From Acidimicrobiia bacterium (GTDB lineage: Bacteria; Actinomycetota; Acidimicrobiia; Spongiisociales; UBA11373): a stretch of DNA of 64,000 bases. The notes below the pieces were generated by a model. It was not told the DNA's origin. It ran no database searches and was given only the letters and a program-made list of their open reading frames with translations. Below, in pieces: positions 5,497 through 53,529 of the stretch (its first letter is position 1; each line of letters starts with the position of its first letter). Made by a program: the position numbers and the translations under genes. Where the stretch lies: NCBI GenBank assembly GCA_040882645.1, contig JBBEAX010000055.1:3589-67588 (forward strand), written 5' to 3'.

Positions 5497-5530
5497 GGCT
5501 GGAGGGTAGATCAGCAAGCCCCACTTTCGG

Positions 5531-5681
5531 TACGCAATGAGCAATGCGCAATGAGCGACCTGCGGTCCGCGTCCGTGGAAGTTTGACGCGTCGCGCATCG
5601 CGCATTGCGCATCGCGCATTGCGAATCGCCCCCCGGCGCAGACCACTCTTGTCTTGCTACTTGACTCTTGACTCTTGCTAC
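5531..5681. repeat. Composite heptad element: R array (5531-5557), inverted R' array (5588-5629), K' array CTCTTGA-type (5646-5681)
   Basis: The R/R' arms pair with 3 mismatches in 25. The R'+K' part is the inverted counterpart of 9685-9782. The uppS stop TAG (5678-5680) lies inside the K' array. Confidence 0.8.
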
Positions 5682-6490
5682 TTTCCGAACCTGCGCTCTC
5701 GCCGGGTGTAGTCGCGTAGGGCGCGTAAGAAGTCGACCCGGCGGAAGCCGGGCCAGTGGACGTCGACGAACGAGTATTCGGCATACGCCGCCTGCCACAG
5801 GAGGAAGCCCGACAGGCGGGACTCCCCGCTCGTGCGGATGACCAGATCCGGGTCGGGCAGATCGGCGGCGTACAAGTGGGCGGCGATCGCCCCTGCATCG
5901 ATCGAATCGGCTAGTTGCTCGGCCTCCACCCCGTCGGCGGCCAGCTTCGCCACCAGCTCGCGGACCGCGTCCACGATCTCCTGGCGGCCGGTGTAGGCGA
6001 GCGCCAGGTTGAGCCGCCGTCGCCCGCGCGGCGAAGACGCCGACAACTGCCGCGCCGCCTGCTGGAGCCGGTCGGGCAGCAGGTGGATGCTGCCGATGAC
6101 ACCCACCTGCAGGTCCTCGCCTCCGATTGCCGGCAGCCGCTCGAACAGGTCGACCAGGACGTCGTAATACGGCTCTAGTTCGGCCGGAGGGCGTTCGAGG
6201 TTCTCCTGCGACAGCAGCCAGCAGGTCATCACCGGAACGTCGAGGTCACCGCACCACCCGAGGAACTCGGCGAGCTTGTCCATCCCCGCCCGGTACGACG
6301 AGGCGTAGTCGCGAAGGCCGGCGATCCGGGCGAAACGCCGGTGGCCGTCGAGGATCACCCCGACGTGTCGAGGGAGCTTCTCCCGGTCCAGCGATCGAAG
6401 GAGGCGCTCCTCGTAGAGCCGATACAGCGGCCGGGTCAGCACGGTCCTACGCGGCGACGGCCCGGAACGCCTGTCAGCAGGTTCCGTCAT
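5678..6490 (-). CDS. uppS: Isoprenyl transferase (cis-prenyl diphosphate synthase, UppS family)
   Basis: 270 aa from ATG 6490 with HVGVILDGHRRFA and IRTSGESRLSGFLLWQAAYAEY. Which UppS paralogue this is cannot be decided from sequence alone. Confidence 0.85.
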   Translation of the reverse strand: MTEPADRRSGPSPRRTVLTRPLYRLYEERLLRSLDREKLPRHVGVILDGHRRFARIAGLRDYASSYRAGMDKLAEFLGWCGDLDVPVMTCWLLSQENLERPPAELEPYYDVLVDLFERLPAIGGEDLQVGVIGSIHLLPDRLQQAARQLSASSPRGRRRLNLALAYTGRQEIVDAVRELVAKLAADGVEAEQLADSIDAGAIAAHLYAADLPDPDLVIRTSGESRLSGFLLWQAAYAEYSFVDVHWPGFRRVDFLRALRDYTRRERRFGK

Positions 6491-9631: not shown

Positions 9632-9684
9632 GGAAAGAGCATCGGCCCGATCTGTCGTGGTCTAAAGAGCGACCCGGGGCGGAA

Positions 9685-9835
9685 GTAGCAAGAGTCAAGA
9701 GTCAAGAGTCAAGAGAGGTCTGCTGGCGATGTGGACGCGATTCGCAATTACGCGATTCGCAATACGCGATACGCGATACGACAGAACGGACCGCTCGCAG
9801 CGGGGCCTGCGGCCGCCTTGGGCGGCCTGCAGGGC
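9685..9835. repeat. Composite heptad element: K array GTCAAGA x3 (9685-9718), R array (9735-9782), GC hairpin (9801-9835)
   Basis: Bases 9685-9706 are the exact reverse complement of 5660-5681 (22/22). GGTCTGC and GCGATTCGCAAT are also shared with the inverted left copy. It lies in the divergent GT4/SDR intergenic region. Confidence 0.85.
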
Positions 9836-14509: not shown

Positions 14510-16372
14510 ATGGAACCCAAAGAACTCCTCGGCAGGATCAAGGCCGAGGTTGCAGCACCAGCAGAAGAGGTGACGTTCGCCCGGTACCTCGAGATGGTGC
14601 GGGACGACCCCCGACTCGCCCGACTATCGCACGCACTGATCGCCGACATGCTCGAGGCTTCCGGTGTGTCCACCGGGCCCGACGGCGAGGAGCGCTTCGA
14701 CCTTTTCGAGGGCGGGCTGTTCGGTCAGCAGTGGGTCATCCAGCAGGTGGTCGATTACTTCCGGGCGGCCGGATGCCGCCTCGATGTCCGCAAGCGGATC
14801 CTGCTTCTCGTCGGCCCTCCCGGGTCGGGCAAGTCGACCCTCATCAACACCATCAAGGAGGGTCTCGAGGCGTACACCAAAACCGACGACGGCCGGGTGT
14901 ACGCGGTCAAGGGCTCTCAGATGCACGAGGACCCGCTGCGGCTGATCCCCAATGAGCTCCGCGACGAGACCGGCGTCTACATCGAAGGGGACCTCAATCC
15001 CGAGGTGCGTTGGTTGGTGGAATACGTCTACCAGGGCGACATCACCAAGGTGCCGATCCAACGGATCCACTACAGCATCGCCCGCGGCACCGGCTTCGGC
15101 ACCTTTGTCGCCACCGACCCCCGCTCGGAGAACCTTGCCCGCCTCGTCGGTGAGGTGGAGCAGAGCCTCCTCGATCCCACCGACCCGGGATCGGTGCGGC
15201 GCGCTTACCGATTCGACGGCGAGCTGAACGCGGCCCACCGGGGGATGGCCGACCTGCTCGAAGTCTTCAAGATGGACGAACGCTTTCTGGCGGTGCTGCT
15301 GAGCCTCAGCCAGGAACAGATCATCAAGACGAGCGGTCCCGGGACCATGTACGCCGACGAGGCCTTGGTCGCCCAGAGCAACCTCGCCGAATATCAGGAG
15401 CTCGTCGACAACCCGCGGGCGGCCGCGATGCTCGACCGCCTCGTGGTGGTGAAGGTTCCGTTCGTGCTGTCGGTGCGCGACGAGATCCGCATCTACGAAA
15501 AGATGCTCTCGGGCGCCGACCTCGGCCGGCGCGACGTCTCGCCGCTCGCCCTCCACACCGCCGCCACCTTCGCAGTGCTGACCAGGCTGGAGCACCCGGG
15601 CGGAGGCATGCAGGGCCTGATCCGCAAGCTCCGGCTCTACGACGGCCGCTACGGGCCTCACGGCGGCTCGGAGGACGCCCGCAAGCTGCGGGACAAGGCG
15701 CCAAACGAGGGCATGACCGGACTGAGCCCCCGCTACGTGATCAATCGCCTGTCGCAGGTGGCCGGCAACACCAAGGGTTGCCTCGATGGCATCGCGGTGC
15801 TCGAAGCGCTCTGGGAGGGTCTCCCCCAGCGGGCCGGGTTCACCGAAGACGAACGCGAGCGTTGGAGCTCACTGCTCTCCGCCACTCAGGCCGAGTACGA
15901 CGAGATGGTGCAGTTGGAGATTCGCAAGGGGTCGGTGCTCGGGTTCAAGGACTCGGCCGAGAAGATGGCGAAGACGGTTCGGGAGGAGGTGGCAGCGTGG
16001 AAGTCCCAGGGCGACGCGGCCAACACCCCCACGCTGCGACGGTTGGAGCGGCTCATCGACGTCCCCCAGTACGGACGAGATCGATTCCGCAATGCGCTCT
16101 CGGCAGCGCTGGAGTTGAAGGGGCAGCGGGGTCGCCCGCTCCACACCCGCCATCCCTTGTTGGAGGATGCGATCCAGCGGGCACTGCTGCCGTCGTGGAG
16201 CGACGTAGCCAAGAAGCTCGACGACCAGGGCGACGGCATCGTCCAGGGCATCCAGGCTTCCGGCTGGCGCAAGGCCTGTGCCGAGCAACTGGTCGAGTAC
16301 GCCCACAAGTTCATCGGATCGAAGCGCGACCGGCGGGACGAGGGCGAGAAGAAGCCGACCTGGTACTCCTGA
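14510..16372 (+). CDS. prkA: PrkA family AAA+ serine protein kinase
   Basis: ATG 14510 follows AGGAG. Long collinear similarity to B. subtilis PrkA / E. coli YeaG (RLDVRKRILLLVGPPGSGKSTL, YAVKGSQMHEDPLRLIP, AYRFDGELNAAHRGMADLLEVFKMDERFL). Confidence 0.9.
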   Translation: MEPKELLGRIKAEVAAPAEEVTFARYLEMVRDDPRLARLSHALIADMLEASGVSTGPDGEERFDLFEGGLFGQQWVIQQVVDYFRAAGCRLDVRKRILLLVGPPGSGKSTLINTIKEGLEAYTKTDDGRVYAVKGSQMHEDPLRLIPNELRDETGVYIEGDLNPEVRWLVEYVYQGDITKVPIQRIHYSIARGTGFGTFVATDPRSENLARLVGEVEQSLLDPTDPGSVRRAYRFDGELNAAHRGMADLLEVFKMDERFLAVLLSLSQEQIIKTSGPGTMYADEALVAQSNLAEYQELVDNPRAAAMLDRLVVVKVPFVLSVRDEIRIYEKMLSGADLGRRDVSPLALHTAATFAVLTRLEHPGGGMQGLIRKLRLYDGRYGPHGGSEDARKLRDKAPNEGMTGLSPRYVINRLSQVAGNTKGCLDGIAVLEALWEGLPQRAGFTEDERERWSSLLSATQAEYDEMVQLEIRKGSVLGFKDSAEKMAKTVREEVAAWKSQGDAANTPTLRRLERLIDVPQYGRDRFRNALSAALELKGQRGRPLHTRHPLLEDAIQRALLPSWSDVAKKLDDQGDGIVQGIQASGWRKACAEQLVEYAHKFIGSKRDRRDEGEKKPTWYS

Positions 16373-16433
16373 ATCAAGAATCAAGAATCAAGAAGCGGGA
16401 CTGGCGTCATCTTGAATCTTGACTCTTGTATCC
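16371..16433. repeat. K-class heptad hairpin: (GAATCAA)x3 - 12-nt loop - TCTTGAA TCTTGAC TCTTG
   Basis: Arms 16375-16395 and 16408-16428 pair at 18 of 21 positions. It lies between the convergent prkA and cca, and both stop codons fall inside the element. Confidence 0.85.
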
Positions 16434-20247: not shown

Positions 20248-20970
20248 GTGACAACACGAGTACGGGTCGAGGGCAGTTGGCCCGAGCCGATCACGCTGAG
20301 GAGGGGTTGGGCACGGGCCGAGTCGCGGCCGTGGAACGATGTCGTCCCGATGGCTCACCTCCGTTTGATGCGCGGCGGAGGAACCCAGTTCCTCAGTGAC
20401 TGTGTCGACGCCCTCCGCGAGGTCGGAGCATCGGCCGTGCTGTCACCCCCGCTCCCCCGGTCCGCGCAGCAGACATGGTGCGACGCCGAGTTCGTGCATC
20501 ACGCCGACCTCGCGCTTCTCCGCACCACCCTGGATCGAATACCCCCGCCGGCTCATCTCGTACTCGTCGGAGGAGAATCCGACATCGAGGAGGCGCTCCG
20601 CATCGACGCCGCCGCCTTCGACGACTTCTGGCGGTTCGACCACCGAGCCATGTGCGAGGCGATGGCGGCCACCCCTCGCGCCGTCCTTCACGTCGTCCGC
20701 AACGCCGCCGGCGGACTCGCCGGCTTCGCCGTCAGCGGAGCCGGCACATCGATCGCCTACCTGCAACGCCTGGCGGTCGATCCGGGGAGCCAGGGCCGCG
20801 GGATCGGGCGGTCCCTGGTCCGGTCATCGGCACGATGGGCGAAGCGGATGGGGTCGCGGGTGCTCATGCTCAACACCCAGATCGACAACGACGGAGCGAT
20901 CGCCCTCTACGAGTCGGAGGGATTCGTCGCGCTCAAGGAACCCCTGGCGGTGCTGAAGAACGCGGGGTGA
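20248..20970 (+). CDS. GNAT family N-acetyltransferase
   Basis: C-terminal acetyl-CoA motif LAVDPGSQGRGIGRSLV...LNTQIDNDGAIALYESEGF. Divergent from the deacetylase gene across 58 nt. Confidence 0.8.
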   Translation: MTTRVRVEGSWPEPITLRRGWARAESRPWNDVVPMAHLRLMRGGGTQFLSDCVDALREVGASAVLSPPLPRSAQQTWCDAEFVHHADLALLRTTLDRIPPPAHLVLVGGESDIEEALRIDAAAFDDFWRFDHRAMCEAMAATPRAVLHVVRNAAGGLAGFAVSGAGTSIAYLQRLAVDPGSQGRGIGRSLVRSSARWAKRMGSRVLMLNTQIDNDGAIALYESEGFVALKEPLAVLKNAG

Positions 20971-20981
20971 ACAGAGAGGCA

Positions 20982-21045
20982 GGAATCAAGAATCAAGAAT
21001 CAAGACCGTGGCAGGTTCGAGTCTTGAATCTTGGCTCTTGATTCC
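20982..21045. repeat. K-class heptad hairpin: GGAATCAAGAATCAAGAATCAAGAC - 14-nt loop - GTCTTGAATCTTGGCTCTTGATTCC
   Basis: A 25-position stem with 22 Watson-Crick pairs, 1 G-U and 2 mismatches (paired by hand). It lies between the convergent GNAT and DegV genes. Confidence 0.9.
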
Positions 21046-43240: not shown

Positions 43241-43279
43241 CCCGACCCCGGTCCCGGCCCTACCCTCACCCCACCACGC

Positions 43280-43460
43280 GAGTGGTGACCTGACGGACAG
43301 CGAAGTCCGGTTTGAATCCGGCACTGTCCCGCAACCGTGATGCCCCTTTTGGGGACGAGTCGGGACGCCTGACGTCAGGTCGGATTTGGACGCCTTCGGA
43401 GGAAGGGTGGCCAGCCGTCGGGCTTCCACACCTCCTCCTCGAGACTCGAGGAGGTTTTTT
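43280..43460 (+). promoter_or_regulatory. Cobalamin (B12) riboswitch with a terminator / SD-sequestering expression platform
   Basis: The core GAAGUCCGGUUUGAAUCCGGCACUGUCCCGCAACCGUGA (43302-43340) matches the conserved cobalamin aptamer core from memory. The B12-box-like GAGUCGGGACGCCUGACG is at 43358-43375. P1 candidate is ACCUGACG (43288-43295) with CGUCAGGU (43373-43380). Terminator CCTCCTCG-agact-CGAGGAGG plus T6 is at 43434-43460. Its 3' arm contains the GGAGG SD for ATG 43462. Confidence 0.8.
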
Positions 43461-50077: not shown

Positions 50078-52270
50078 ATGCGCAGGTACCTCGCCCTCGC
50101 GGCGGTAATGGTGATGGCGATGACGGCGTGTACCCGGGCGGAGTCGACCAGCCCGATCCGATCGCTGGGAGCCTCTTTCGATCCCCGGTCGATCACCTTC
50201 AGCGCGGTCCTTACCCCGTTCGATGCGTGCGACGCCGTGCTGGTCCACTTCAAGGCCGAGGCTCTCGAGCGCGTCGGCCCCTACGGGCTCGATGGCGGCC
50301 CTCGCTGGTACTTCTTCGAGGGAGGCGCCAGGGCACAGGAGGACACTGCCGGCCCTCCCGGTGACGGCGCGGTGACCACCATGCCCGCCTCCCTTGCCGG
50401 CAGAGGCGAGGATGGCGGTTTTTCGGGGACCAATGTCCAGGTGTCCGGGGTTGACGAGCCCGACATCATCAAGACCGACGGCGAGCGAATCCTGTCGATC
50501 GTCGACGGAAAGCTCCGCTACGTCGATGTGACCGGTGACGAACCGGTCCTGCTGGGAGAACTCCAACTCGAGACGGGCTGGAATCACCGGTTCTTCGTGG
50601 ACGGTGACCGTGCTTTCGTCTTCTCGCAGGGCGACCTCTATGCGATCCCGATGTTTGCCGCCGACGCCGCCCGCATCGCCCCGCCCTATGGCGCGACCGT
50701 GAGCGTGGTTCAGGAGATAGACCTGTCCGACCCCGACGACATGCAGGTCGTCCGTACCCTGCGAGTCGATGGTTCCTACCTGAGCGCTCGCTCGATCGAC
50801 GGCGTGGTGCGAATGGTGGTGTCGTCCTATCCGTCGGATCTCCCCTTCGTGTATCCATCCAATGAGTCGGCCGAGGACATCGCTCTCGCCGCCAACCGTC
50901 AGATCATTGAAACGTCGACCCTGGAGACCTGGGTCCCCTCGTACACCTTGTACGACGCCGATGGCGACGAGATCGACTCGGGGCTGGTGGTGGCGTGTGA
51001 TCGGATGCATCGCCCCGCCGAGTTCGCCGGGTTCGACACCTTGTCCGTGACGACGCTCGATCTCAGCGGCTCGCTCGGCGCCGGCAACGGCACCGGTGTG
51101 ATCGCTCGCGGCGAGACGGTTTACGCGTCTCACACGAGCCTCTACGTGGCCACCAATGTGTGGATCCCGGAGGACGTCTCCGACACCACCGATTTCCAGG
51201 AGTTCTCGGAGCGGTACGAGACGGCGGTGCACAAATTCGACATCGCCGGCAACGGACCGGCCACCTATCGCGCCAGCGGATCGATCGACGGACACTTGCT
51301 CAATCAGTTCTCACTGGACGAGTTCGACGGTCACCTGCGGGTCGCGGTCACCGAGGGCGCTCCCTGGTCGTTCGAGGAGGACTCGGAGTCCAAGATTGTC
51401 GTCCTCACCGAGCGCGACGGGCTTCTCGTCGAAATCGGATCAGTCGGAGACATGGGCAAGGGGGAAAGGATCTACTCGGTCCGCTTCCTCGGGGAGACGG
51501 CGTATGTGGTGACGTTCCGCCAGGTCGACCCGCTCTATGTGGTCGATCTCAGGAACCCGGAGAACCCGGTTGTCAGCGGCGAGCTCAAGATCCCCGGCTA
51601 CTCCTCATACCTCCACCCTCTGGGCAACGGGATGCTGCTCGGGGTGGGCCAGGAGGCCGATAGCCAGGGCCGTACGACGGGAGCGAAGGCCACCCTGTTC
51701 GATGTCTCCGATCCGTCCGATCCTCGAGAGATCTCATCGTGGACCATCGCCGACGCGTACAGCGACGTCGAGTGGGAGCACCTGGCCTTCCTCTACTGGG
51801 CGCCGGCGGACATTGTGGTCCTGCCGATTCAGTCCTGGATGACGCAGTTCATGGGGGCGGTGGTCCTCAAGACCGACGATGGGCTGCGTGAGTATGGACG
51901 TATCACCCATCAGCGCGAAGACCGCCCGGGCGATGGATCGGACTGTGAGGTTCTCGACTCCGTCAAGGAAGCCGGACTCGTTATTCAGCTCTGCGACGAG
52001 GGCGACGATGGCGGGTACGGCGGGTACTACTGCGAGTCCGTGCCGGCGGATGAGGCCGCCGCACTCGCTCGGGACTGGGGCGTCGAAGTCTCCGACGACG
52101 AACTCGACGCCGCCGACCGGGTCGAGGTTTGCTGGCCGAACTACGAGCTCGGCGATCAGCAGATCATGCGGTCCCTGGTGATCGGAGACATATTGTGGAC
52201 ACTGTCCTGGCACGGCCTCCAGGCCAACGCCCTCGACGGCCTCGAGGTGCTCCACAAGGTGGGGTTCTAA
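50078..52270 (+). CDS. Secreted lipoprotein with a C-terminal beta-propeller domain (COG4880-like)
   Basis: Lipobox VMAMTAC. GVDEPDIIKTDGERI, YSVRFLGETAYVVTFRQVDPLYVVDL and SSYLHPLG are typical of the Beta_propel family as I recall it. Confidence 0.8.
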   Translation: MRRYLALAAVMVMAMTACTRAESTSPIRSLGASFDPRSITFSAVLTPFDACDAVLVHFKAEALERVGPYGLDGGPRWYFFEGGARAQEDTAGPPGDGAVTTMPASLAGRGEDGGFSGTNVQVSGVDEPDIIKTDGERILSIVDGKLRYVDVTGDEPVLLGELQLETGWNHRFFVDGDRAFVFSQGDLYAIPMFAADAARIAPPYGATVSVVQEIDLSDPDDMQVVRTLRVDGSYLSARSIDGVVRMVVSSYPSDLPFVYPSNESAEDIALAANRQIIETSTLETWVPSYTLYDADGDEIDSGLVVACDRMHRPAEFAGFDTLSVTTLDLSGSLGAGNGTGVIARGETVYASHTSLYVATNVWIPEDVSDTTDFQEFSERYETAVHKFDIAGNGPATYRASGSIDGHLLNQFSLDEFDGHLRVAVTEGAPWSFEEDSESKIVVLTERDGLLVEIGSVGDMGKGERIYSVRFLGETAYVVTFRQVDPLYVVDLRNPENPVVSGELKIPGYSSYLHPLGNGMLLGVGQEADSQGRTTGAKATLFDVSDPSDPREISSWTIADAYSDVEWEHLAFLYWAPADIVVLPIQSWMTQFMGAVVLKTDDGLREYGRITHQREDRPGDGSDCEVLDSVKEAGLVIQLCDEGDDGGYGGYYCESVPADEAAALARDWGVEVSDDELDAADRVEVCWPNYELGDQQIMRSLVIGDILWTLSWHGLQANALDGLEVLHKVGF

Positions 52271-52354
52271 AGAGACCCAAGAATCAAGAGTCAAGAATCG
52301 AGACCAGCCGGTGTCGCCGATGGTCATCTTGGTTCTTGGCTCTTGATTCTCTTT
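52271..52354. repeat. K-class heptad hairpin: CAAGAAT CAAGAGT CAAGAAT (52271-52305) and inverted CTTGGTT CTTGGCT CTTGATT (52322-52354)
   Basis: Direct reading. The outer AAAGAGA/TCTCTTT ends also pair. It lies between the beta-propeller gene stop and the MFS start. Confidence 0.8.
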
Positions 52355-52386
52355 GAGCGCAGCGAGACCCCTTACCATCGATACCC

Positions 52387-53529
52387 GTGTTCGCTCCCAT
52401 TCGTTCCATGCTGTCGGTGCGCCGGGGGGCGCCGGCGGCGCTCATCGTGGGGGCGGCGTCGGTGTCGTTCCTCTTCGGCGCAACGCCATTCTTGATTCCC
52501 GAGGTGGCCGATCGGCTCGGCGTGAGCCTGGGGGTCGCCGGGCTCATCTCCTCTGCCCAGGTGCTGGGGTTCGCCGGATCGGTGTTCGTTGCCGGTAGGC
52601 GGCTCTCTCCGTCCCGTGGCGTGTTGGTGTGGGCGGCGGTGGCTGCGGCGGCGTTCGATGTGGCCAGCGGGTTCGTGCCGTCGTTCGGGCTGCTCCTGGT
52701 CTTGCGACTCGGTGCCGGGGTCGCAGCCGGCCTGCTCACCTGGTTGGCGTGGGCGGATGCGATGCGGTCGTCTCACTCGATGCGCGACATCGCGGCGATC
52801 GGCCCATTGACGGTGTTGTTCGGTGCACCGCTGCTCGGGTGGGTGGGGTCGGTGGGCGGCGACCGTGCCCTCTACCTGGTGTTGGCCGCCTCGATGATCC
52901 CCCCCATGTTGATTCCGGTCGAGTTCGTGGCCCAGCCGATGAGGGGGCGGCACTCGATGAGCCCGTCGCGCACGAACCTCGTGCTGCTGGGTGCGCTCGG
53001 GTGTCTGACGATGGCGGGTTCCGCCCTCTTCGTCTTCCTTGGCGCATTCGCCGACATCGAGATCGGCCTGACGGCGGTCGCGCTGTCCCTGGGGTTCAGC
53101 GTCAATGCGTTGGCCGGACTGATCGCCGCCGGCCGGCGTCGACGGCCCCGATACGCCTGGCCGTGGCTGGTGGTGACGGCTGTTTCAGCGACTTCCATCG
53201 TCCTGTTCCCTGGCGCGGTCGTGTTCTACGCGGGGATGTTCGGGTGGGGTTTCGCCTTCTGGATGGCGGTGCCCCGGGTGCTGGGGCGGGTGGCTGAGTG
53301 GTCTCTGGTCCCGGACGAGCGGGTGGGCGACGCCCAGTCGATCATGGCGCTGGGTCGCGCCGCCGGCCCGGCGATCGGGGGGACTCTGGTCGGCTCAGGC
53401 GATTTCGGTGGCCTGGTGGTGTTCGCTGGCGCCGGGCTGCTGAGTAGCGCGATCCTGACGGGATCGGTGGAGGTCTACCGGCGAGACCGGGCAGGTCCGT
53501 CAGCCGGTCACAACGTGCCGCATCGCTGA
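52387..53529 (+). CDS. MFS transporter
   Basis: 380 aa with about 12 predicted TM helices and a GTG start. Confidence 0.8.
   Translation: MFAPIRSMLSVRRGAPAALIVGAASVSFLFGATPFLIPEVADRLGVSLGVAGLISSAQVLGFAGSVFVAGRRLSPSRGVLVWAAVAAAAFDVASGFVPSFGLLLVLRLGAGVAAGLLTWLAWADAMRSSHSMRDIAAIGPLTVLFGAPLLGWVGSVGGDRALYLVLAASMIPPMLIPVEFVAQPMRGRHSMSPSRTNLVLLGALGCLTMAGSALFVFLGAFADIEIGLTAVALSLGFSVNALAGLIAAGRRRRPRYAWPWLVVTAVSATSIVLFPGAVVFYAGMFGWGFAFWMAVPRVLGRVAEWSLVPDERVGDAQSIMALGRAAGPAIGGTLVGSGDFGGLVVFAGAGLLSSAILTGSVEVYRRDRAGPSAGHNVPHR

Follow-up and report, generated by a model that had tools for sequence, protein, structure and literature searches.

Stop-codon-anchored CAAGANN heptad-repeat hairpins in an Acidimicrobiia genome: candidate members of a palindrome family tied to PF05635 cassettes

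When AT-rich hairpins stand directly after genes in a G+C-rich genome, are they devices that end transcription, or repeats that settle at such places? The question is raised by a stretch of 64,000 nucleotides (nt) from an Acidimicrobiia bacterium (GenBank assembly GCA_040882645.1, contig JBBEAX010000055.1, positions 3,589 to 67,588 of the forward strand), which as a whole will be referred to as “the window”. An initial annotation, made from the letters alone, described three such hairpins, named them K, and proposed that they are bidirectional terminators lacking a U-tract. Here we demonstrate the anatomy of the K hairpins, their anchoring at stop codons, their turnover in relatives both unit by unit and class by class, the recurrence of the design across phyla, the bracketing of PF05635 genes by heptad arms, and one case of transcriptional read-through. 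On these grounds we give about an even chance to the reading that the K hairpins are the CAAGANN members of a family of heptad-repeat palindromes, similar to repetitive extragenic palindromic (REP) sequences and MITEs (miniature inverted-repeat transposable elements) and tied to PF05635 cassettes, and that they are not dedicated terminators.

The three hairpins are present in the window with the sequences described for them (coordinates in Table 1), and all are stable when folded as RNA, with -22 to -44 kcal/mol over both strands and z = -2.8 to -7.0 against shuffled sequences. The pairing first counted by hand for copies 1 and 2 (18/21 and 23/25) agrees well with the computed folds, which give about 19 and about 23 arm pairs. 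Heptad-repeat hairpins occupy many spacers of this uncultured Acidimicrobiia lineage, and the K class among them can be written as (CAAGANN)n-loop-(NNTCTTG)n, i.e., a constant CAAGA core plus two free positions, and Tandem Repeats Finder (TRF) reports a period of 7 with 3.3-3.7 copies per arm. A unit 15-mer (up to 2 mismatches allowed) has 12 matches in the window vs. 0.00 expected from shuffles. The arms are AT-rich (30-42% G+C vs. 66.8% for the window), the loops measure 16-23 nt and hold no reading frame, and both the loops and the free positions vary from copy to copy within the window. The reported lack of a U-tract is accurate for copies 1 and 2 on either strand, whereas copy 3 has a U-rich stretch at its 3′ base (UUCUCUUUG), which is paired. 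A search of the whole window with Rfam 15 at the gathering score returned no family matching the K hairpins.

Regarding position, Pfam assignments bear out the gene contexts first proposed: copy 1 lies between PrkA (+) and CCA (-), copy 2 between GNAT (+) and DegV (-), and copy 3 follows a beta-propeller gene (+) and precedes an MFS gene (+). The distance from stop codon to hairpin is 0-12 nt in the three copies and, counting degenerate outer units, all three arrays open at the stop codon: TGA followed by ATCAAGA in copy 1, TGA ACAGAGA GGCAGGA ATCAAGA in copy 2, and TAA AGAGACC CAAGAAT in copy 3. In the latter, the base of the stem takes in the TAA stop at 52268-52270, the arm proper being 52271-52303. 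The plan of the element is a run of 7-nt units, a loop of 16-30 nt and the inverse run, which opens at the stop codon or supplies it. The bias toward gene 3′ ends expected by the initial annotation is found both in the window (the three hairpins together with an arm at the uppS stop codon) and in at least 120 K hairpins elsewhere.

All three hairpins stand at gene ends as stated, but copy 1 is not purely intergenic, as it overlaps cca. The cca frame crosses the right arm of copy 1, then its loop, and ends inside the left arm, and thus the last ~15 residues of the protein (RDTRVKIQDDASPAS) are encoded by the element. The stop codons of prkA and cca are 15 nt apart, and the homology of CCA to all relatives stops at residue ~464 of 478. 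The cca frame of other relatives also terminates within heptad arrays, of GAGTAGC units in one (L130, 1744-1767) and of CAAGGGG units in another (L136, 986-1011); therefore, repeat-encoded C-terminal tails of CCA recur in the clade.

The turnover of these elements can be followed at the same gene ends in relatives. A contig of a metagenome-assembled genome (MAG), L181, is colinear with window positions 32002-11060 at 92-94% nucleotide identity. At copy 2, one arm and the loop are identical in both genomes, and the other arm holds 8-9 units in L181 vs. 3 in the window, a 35-nt insertion of 5-6 units. Copy 1 is orthologous in L181; in both genomes the CCA tail is equally long and the stop codon falls in the distal arm, at its first TCTTGA, and 46 additional nt separate the element from the prkA stop in L181. 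Its loop (16394-16409 in the window, 15454-15469 in L181) is identical at 10 of 16 positions; five of the six changes are G/A transitions, which might reflect deamination of an extruded single-stranded loop, although a sample of 6 changes is too small to judge. The two arms of an element change independently of each other, and they do so by gaining or losing entire units.

Among further relatives, entire heptad classes are exchanged. In those 68-85% identical, the cca end carries arrays of AGGTGGC, GAGTAGC, CCGTAGT or CAAGGGG, or CCCGCCT and GCCGTCA arrays with a K hairpin nested inside them, and at 60-63% identity no such arrays were found at this gene end. The DegV/GNAT spacer of a relative 78% identical holds GCGAAGG arrays, and the beta-propeller/MFS spacer of relatives holds arrays of CAGCCNN, GCTAATC or AAGCGGC, the block just before the MFS start being conserved. 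Strains with identical proteins have differing DegV-side and beta-propeller/MFS spacers: two loci (L183, 8856-8906; L184, 2265-2421) encode an identical DegV protein, yet the downstream spacer differs by a 106-nt indel between direct GCGAAGG arrays, so rearrangement of the heptad spacers outpaces protein change. In the beta-propeller/MFS spacers of L191 and L193, K-like or other units flank a conserved G+C hairpin. K hairpins also occur in an Actinomycetota MAG whose PrkA is 87% identical to that of the window (L007, L039 and L085), one of them in its prkA/cca spacer. The argument that the K sequence was “unlikely to persist by drift” is reversed by this comparison, since that sequence is not conserved and other heptad classes substitute for it at the same gene ends; given this replacement across relatives, the persistent feature is some heptad hairpin directly after the stop codon, not the K sequence. 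As for the assemblies themselves, metagenome contigs of close relatives end in or beside the heptad hairpin before MFS (the starts of L189, L190 and L192) and at the prkA/cca hairpin; short-read assemblies break at these elements, and metagenome contigs aligned to the window are too noisy for calling heptad variants.

The design is by no means limited to this clade. Species-representative genomes were scanned with the pattern CAAGANNCAAGANNCAAGA-N8-38-TCTTGNNTCTTG, which ascertains loci on the CAAGA core; at least 120 loci were retrieved, and the same hairpin design is shared by at least 120 genomes from many phyla. The matches listed, to which the figures of this paragraph refer, include Bacteroidota (Mucilaginibacter, Flavobacterium), Verrucomicrobiota, Acidobacteriota, Chloroflexota, Nitrospinota, delta- and beta/gammaproteobacteria, candidate phyla and Actinomycetota. 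Genes around these loci were called by open reading frame heuristics. Over 117 gene ends, the first unit, often a degenerate one, follows the stop codon at a median of 9 nt, and the stop codon is often itself the first degenerate unit, as TAAGA or TAGA; medians for the arms and the loops are 3 exact cores and 18 nt, respectively. The flanking genes are in tandem in 64 cases, convergent in 19 and divergent in 11, against a background of 60%, 19%, and 21%, respectively; divergent spacers are mildly depleted, and convergent ones are without enrichment. At least 16 of the 64 hairpins between co-directional genes lie within 40 nt of the next start codon, and six or more T in the next 10 nt were counted for only 17% of 162 flanks, in low-G+C genomes. 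Full-text literature searches returned no description of CAAGA-type heptad hairpins.

CAAGA-first vs. TCTTG-first polarity on viral contigs was 4 vs. 2 loci, too small a sample to settle the polarity, and TCTTG-first hairpins do occur. Phage-like contigs (L124-L126) carry heptad arrays among structural genes; in L126, hairpins of opposite polarity (GGTTCTT units first, AAGAACC second) are situated on either side of a 138-amino-acid gene by a capsid-like gene.

A gene partner of such arms is found in the PF05635 family. Pairing of arrays across 126 fetched loci gave no convincing K arms around a gene; a protein-motif scan of the fetched loci later found the cassettes, with three PF05635 genes (Pfam E = 7.6e-15 and 8.2e-34). 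Two of the cassettes come from Flavobacterium (L053, L054), where K-type arms (GCAAGAA... and ...TCTTGAC TCTTGCA) surround the PF05635 gene directly past the upstream stop codon. At a distance of 1.3 kb from the cassette of L053 there is a gene-less K hairpin, which matches the left end of that cassette from the arm into the edge of the loop (ACTTAATTTTGAAAT vs. ACTTAATTTTGGAAT). In the closely related Actinomycetota MAG mentioned above (L039, 4990-5370, minus strand), a PF05635 gene frameshifted by a small deletion lies between CGTTNCC/GGNAACG arrays. Seven more homologues were fetched (L185-L188 and L194-L196, of high-G+C Actinomycetota type), all of them between inverted heptad arrays placed directly after a neighboring gene, and inverted heptad arrays hence enclose the PF05635 gene in 10 of the 10 examined. 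The five homologues at least 63% identical, that of L039 included, occupy at least 4 distinct neighborhoods and all have CGTTNCC arms, whereas the three at 52-55% identity have CCGCTNC/GCGGGTA (a class also present in the window, where it is labeled “G”; L194), GCGCCAG and GAGCTTT arms. As the same arms recur at different loci with related PF05635 proteins, the arms travel with the gene, and each protein lineage has its own class of arm. In the window, a motif scan gave no PF05635-like frame; with loops of 16-23 nt lacking such a frame, the K hairpins there could be at most gene-less derivatives.

Taken as members of such a family, the K hairpins of the window would be gene-less derivatives or relatives of PF05635 cassettes that settle immediately 3′ of coding regions, where they may be tolerated. 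They would be transcribed as the 3′ end of the mRNA or as an inter-cistronic part of it, and their long, periodically mismatched stem could act like a REP stem-loop, either as a barrier to 3′ exonucleases or as an RNase III substrate; any pausing or termination signal would probably be weak and leaky. Several points weigh against this reading. The three K loops of the window are mutually unrelated, so the copies are not recent offspring of one master element. Neither an empty site nor a target-site duplication was seen in the relatives compared, so insertion is not demonstrated. A K-armed PF05635 gene was not found in the Acidimicrobiia lineage, where the five homologues are all CGTTNCC-armed. 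Growth in situ, by slippage around an older small hairpin (compare L191 and L193), fits as well, and the retention of heptad hairpins at the same gene ends could mean selection for a 3′ structure independent of its sequence. Furthermore, the RNA test described below covers a single hairpin of a distant organism and is compatible with partial termination.

The family reading can be carried further, to a proposal that we hold tentatively and regard as rather doubtful. Each heptad class, K included, would characterize the arms of one separate lineage of PF05635 cassettes (Avd-like four-helix bundle), which together would form a widespread and undescribed system of mobile elements; the protein would recognize its own 7-nt-phased arms, insertion would take place exactly at the 3′ edge of coding regions, and the K hairpins would be non-autonomous copies spread across many phyla and some phages.

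The terminator proposed in the initial annotation survives best among the alternatives, and we still consider it unlikely. It holds that the hairpins are bidirectional intrinsic terminators without a U-tract, at which polymerase is halted on both convergent transcripts; in its layout, an A-rich 5′ arm and a U-rich 3′ arm surround a small central stem, and therefore both strands read A-rich arm, stem, U-rich arm. Much of the positional evidence suits it: all three hairpins occupy 3′ ends of genes, which converge in two of the cases, and the 9-nt median after the stop codon holds over at least 120 K hairpins of other genomes. On either strand the 3′ arm, (UCUUGNN)n, is rich in U; MFS has its own conserved upstream block, so copy 3 may divide two transcription units; and in L191 and L193 a conserved G+C hairpin is flanked by heptads. 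A scan of the region for canonical hairpins followed by a T-run found 7 sites vs. 7.6 expected, none of them at a gene end, and without such enrichment another 3′-end device is plausible. The K hairpins themselves depart from the canonical form, a short G+C-rich stem closed by a loop of 3-8 nt, with their AT-rich stems of 19-30 bp, periodic mismatches and loops of 16-23 nt, and a consensus scan flags none of the three.

On the other hand, RNA speaks against the proposal in the case in which it could be consulted: one K hairpin (L109) of one distant organism, Thiobacillus denitrificans, in one stranded fragment library, which is not Term-seq. This hairpin (1950-2011) is located between convergent herA-like (stop at 1929) and trpC (stop at 2020) genes and folds at -31 and -40 kcal/mol on its two strands. 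The sense RNA of the herA-like gene has a depth of ~31-47 before the hairpin and of 80-98 within it and over the 60 nt beyond, and the transcript runs onward for ~400 nt, antisense into trpC, to sharp 3′ ends at 2399-2408. On the trpC strand, 3′ ends are found at 2140 and 2090, before the hairpin and inside the annotated trpC frame, and the remaining RNA crosses the hairpin at a depth of 84-113, fading over the next 100-350 nt. Coverage thus passes the hairpin both ways with end pile-ups elsewhere, and no pile-up of 3′ ends was detected within about 40 nt of it on either strand in this stranded RNA-seq. This excludes efficient termination at L109, not a weak effect or partial termination. Of the original proposal, the association with gene 3′ ends stands, and the terminator activity is not supported.

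Other observations are also awkward for a terminator. The cca gene is translated through copy 1; a single arm is able to gain 5-6 unpaired units; one K array of the window lies in a divergent spacer; and only 10 of the 55 gene ends of the window have a heptad array nearby. K hairpins fill short spacers between co-directional genes, as in the 16 or more cases noted above, and the low share of T-rich flanks in low-G+C genomes is not what a terminator would lead one to expect. No strand asymmetry, which would have pointed to selection at the RNA level, was detected, the sense and antisense forms being alike in stability (37 vs. 32 of 69, p = 0.6; Wilcoxon p = 0.42).

A protein-binding array, in which phased CAAGA/TCTTG cores would be read in 7-nt steps so as to control folding, processing or mobility of the element, is distinctly improbable, with either an arm-class-specific PF05635 four-helix-bundle protein or a single-strand binder of the cold-shock type as its candidate reader. 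The constancy of the 5-nt core next to two free positions, even beyond the units required by the pattern and within one arm, would fit such a reader, but is in part inherent in the search pattern. Arm class tracks the PF05635 lineage (CGTTNCC in five close homologues; CCGCTNC, GCGCCAG, GAGCTTT and the K type in others), and yet the PF05635 genes found in this lineage included none with K arms. As regards the second candidate, cold-shock proteins are reported to bind at one per pyrimidine-rich heptamer (reviewed in PMC4679880), but many other heptad classes are not pyrimidine-rich.

Lastly, a pure by-product of mutation, with replication slippage favoring 7-nt units and arrays tolerated at small post-gene palindromes without either mobility or function, would agree with the whole-unit changes among close relatives, with spacers that differ between strains with identical proteins, and with the fact that, among long simple repeats, heptanucleotides are commonest in many bacteria, polymerase slippage being the suggested cause (Mrazek et al., 2007, as related in PMC4679880), but it has little probability in our judgment, because it leaves unexplained the recurrence of inverted CAAGANN arms after stop codons in many phyla, the movement of arms with PF05635 genes to different loci, and a 110-nt composite module that is present twice in the window.

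That module belongs to a wider set of repeats. Strict arrays of period 7 number ~20 in the window, differ widely in their units (GCTACCC/GGGTAGC, CGCGATA, CGCAATT, GCCCCCC, among others) and almost all occupy spacers; it is by the criterion of an array within 40 nt of a gene 3′ end that 10 of 55 gene ends were counted. The composite module, of ~110 nt, consists of a K array followed by GGTCTGC and then CGCGAT/CGCAAT heptad arrays. Its two inverted copies (5520-5700 and 9670-9800; 74% column identity) contain both solitary K arms of the window, which are mutually complementary and 4 kb apart, and enclose a 4-kb minus-strand gene group (uppS-like, Zn-peptidase-like and GT4 genes); one copy starts from the uppS stop codon, and the other is placed in the upstream divergent spacer. 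Apart from these repeats, an adenosylcobalamin (AdoCbl, B12) riboswitch at 43274-43419 (+), with 56.5 bits vs. a gathering score of 50, is the sole Rfam hit in the window.

Table 1. Coordinates of the K hairpins of the window, of their parts and of the features adjoining or related to them.
Feature	Position	Strand	Basis
Solitary K arm, TCTTG type on + strand, from the minus-strand TAG stop (5678-5680) of the uppS-like gene; no local partner	5645..5683	.	
Solitary K arm (CAAGAGT x4) in divergent spacer GT4(-)/NmrA-like(+); no local partner	9683..9715	.	
TGA stop of prkA; overlaps opening heptad (GAATCAA) of K copy 1	16370..16372	+	sequence, Pfam
K copy 1, CAAGA-type arm GAATCAAGAATCAAGAATCAAGA (GAATCAA x3 + GA)	16371..16393	.	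sequence, TRF, fold
Last ~15 cca codons (..RDTRVKIQDDASPAS) and stop (TCA on + strand at 16388-16390), all K-encoded	16388..16432	-	
K copy 1, loop, 16 nt, AGCGGGACTGGCGTCA	16394..16409	.	sequence, fold
K copy 1, TCTTG-type arm TCTTGAATCTTGACTCTTGTATC (TCTTGAA TCTTGAC TCTTGTA TC); minus strand is part of CCA C-terminal tail	16410..16432	.	
GNAT stop TGA and degenerate heptads (ACAGAGA GGCAGGA) running into K copy 2	20968..20981	+	sequence, Pfam
K copy 2, CAAGA-type arm; 8-9 units at corresponding arm of relative L181	20982..21005	.	sequence, fold, comparison
K copy 2, loop, 16 nt; same sequence in relative L181	21006..21021	.	sequence, comparison
K copy 2, TCTTG-type arm	21022..21045	.	sequence, fold
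Beta-propeller stop TAA and K copy 3 CAAGA-type arm (AGAGACC CAAGAAT CAAGAGT CAAGAAT CGAGA)	52268..52303	.	sequence, Pfam, fold
K copy 3, loop, 23 nt, containing a small G+C-rich inner stem	52304..52326	.	sequence, fold
K copy 3, TCTTG-type arm and U-rich base	52327..52355	.	sequence, fold
Block upstream of MFS start (GCGCAGCGAGACCCC..ACCATC..GTGTTCGCTCCCAT); conserved in relatives, preceding hairpin region hypervariable	52356..52407	+	

How do the K hairpins relate to systems already described? The closest published analogue is provided by the inverted pairs of GGGAATC heptamers of Xanthomonas campestris and X. axonopodis: 70-75 convergent pairs, able to form stem-loops and transcribed, located preferentially 50 bp or less from a stop codon, which some of them overlap, and rare between divergent genes (Rehm et al., 2015; PMC4692102). 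K hairpins resemble them as tandem 7-nt units of a high-G+C genome arranged in inverted, stem-loop-forming pairs near stop codons. They differ in that the Xanthomonas units are G-rich and were studied as G-quadruplex formers, whereas K is AT-rich and combines a CAAGA core with two free positions; furthermore, neither a PF05635 link nor turnover between relatives is reported for GGGAATC (PMC4692102). Heptanucleotide repeats are also represented by the short tandemly repeated repetitive (STRR) sequences of heterocystous cyanobacteria and by long simple-sequence repeats (Mrazek et al., 2007), as outlined in PMC4679880 and PMC4692102. These share with K an intergenic location, a tandem period of 7 nt, several unit types per genome and a function that lacks explanation, but they are mainly direct arrays, while K forms inverted pairs anchored at stop codons.

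The REP sequences of enterobacteria, together with the bacterial interspersed mosaic elements (BIMEs), are short imperfect extragenic palindromes at 3′ ends and within operons, whose stem-loops protect upstream mRNA; a REP close to a stop codon can affect translation termination. Within a species they share a single conserved sequence; their partners are RAYT transposases, and their stems are not tandem heptads. K hairpins are likewise imperfect palindromes at 3′ ends and between genes, but their arms vary unit by unit, and their gene partner, where present, is PF05635. In the intervening sequences of 23S rRNA (Leptospira, Coxiella), an S23p/PF05635 gene is contained in a long stem. The likeness here lies in the PF05635 gene within inverted long-stem arms, which were heptad arms in the 10 of 10 genes examined in this work; unlike those sequences, the K hairpins of the window are gene-less and follow protein-coding genes rather than interrupting rRNA. 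Compared with a PF05635 cassette, K thus has the inverted heptad arms past the upstream stop codon and lacks the enclosed gene. Finally, U-tract-less “I-shaped” terminators have been proposed for Actinobacteria, and their activity is disputed. Like them, K follows a gene, lacks a U run and belongs to an actinobacterial genome of high G+C content, but its stems are long (21-30 bp), AT-rich and periodically mismatched, its loops are large, and one K hairpin of another phylum is read through.

That heptanucleotide repeats are in excess in bacteria has been known since 2007, without an explanation for it. To this we add that one unit, CAAGANN, recurs as stop-anchored hairpins across many phyla, that its arms change unit by unit between genomes 92-94% identical, that heptad classes replace one another at one and the same gene end, and that such arms bracket PF05635 genes. 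For annotation, it follows that K hairpins lengthen reading frames, as in the CCA tail, and break metagenome assemblies, and that position alone is no ground for labeling them as terminators. What has been a vague “simple repeat” becomes, in this way, a testable element with a candidate protein partner.

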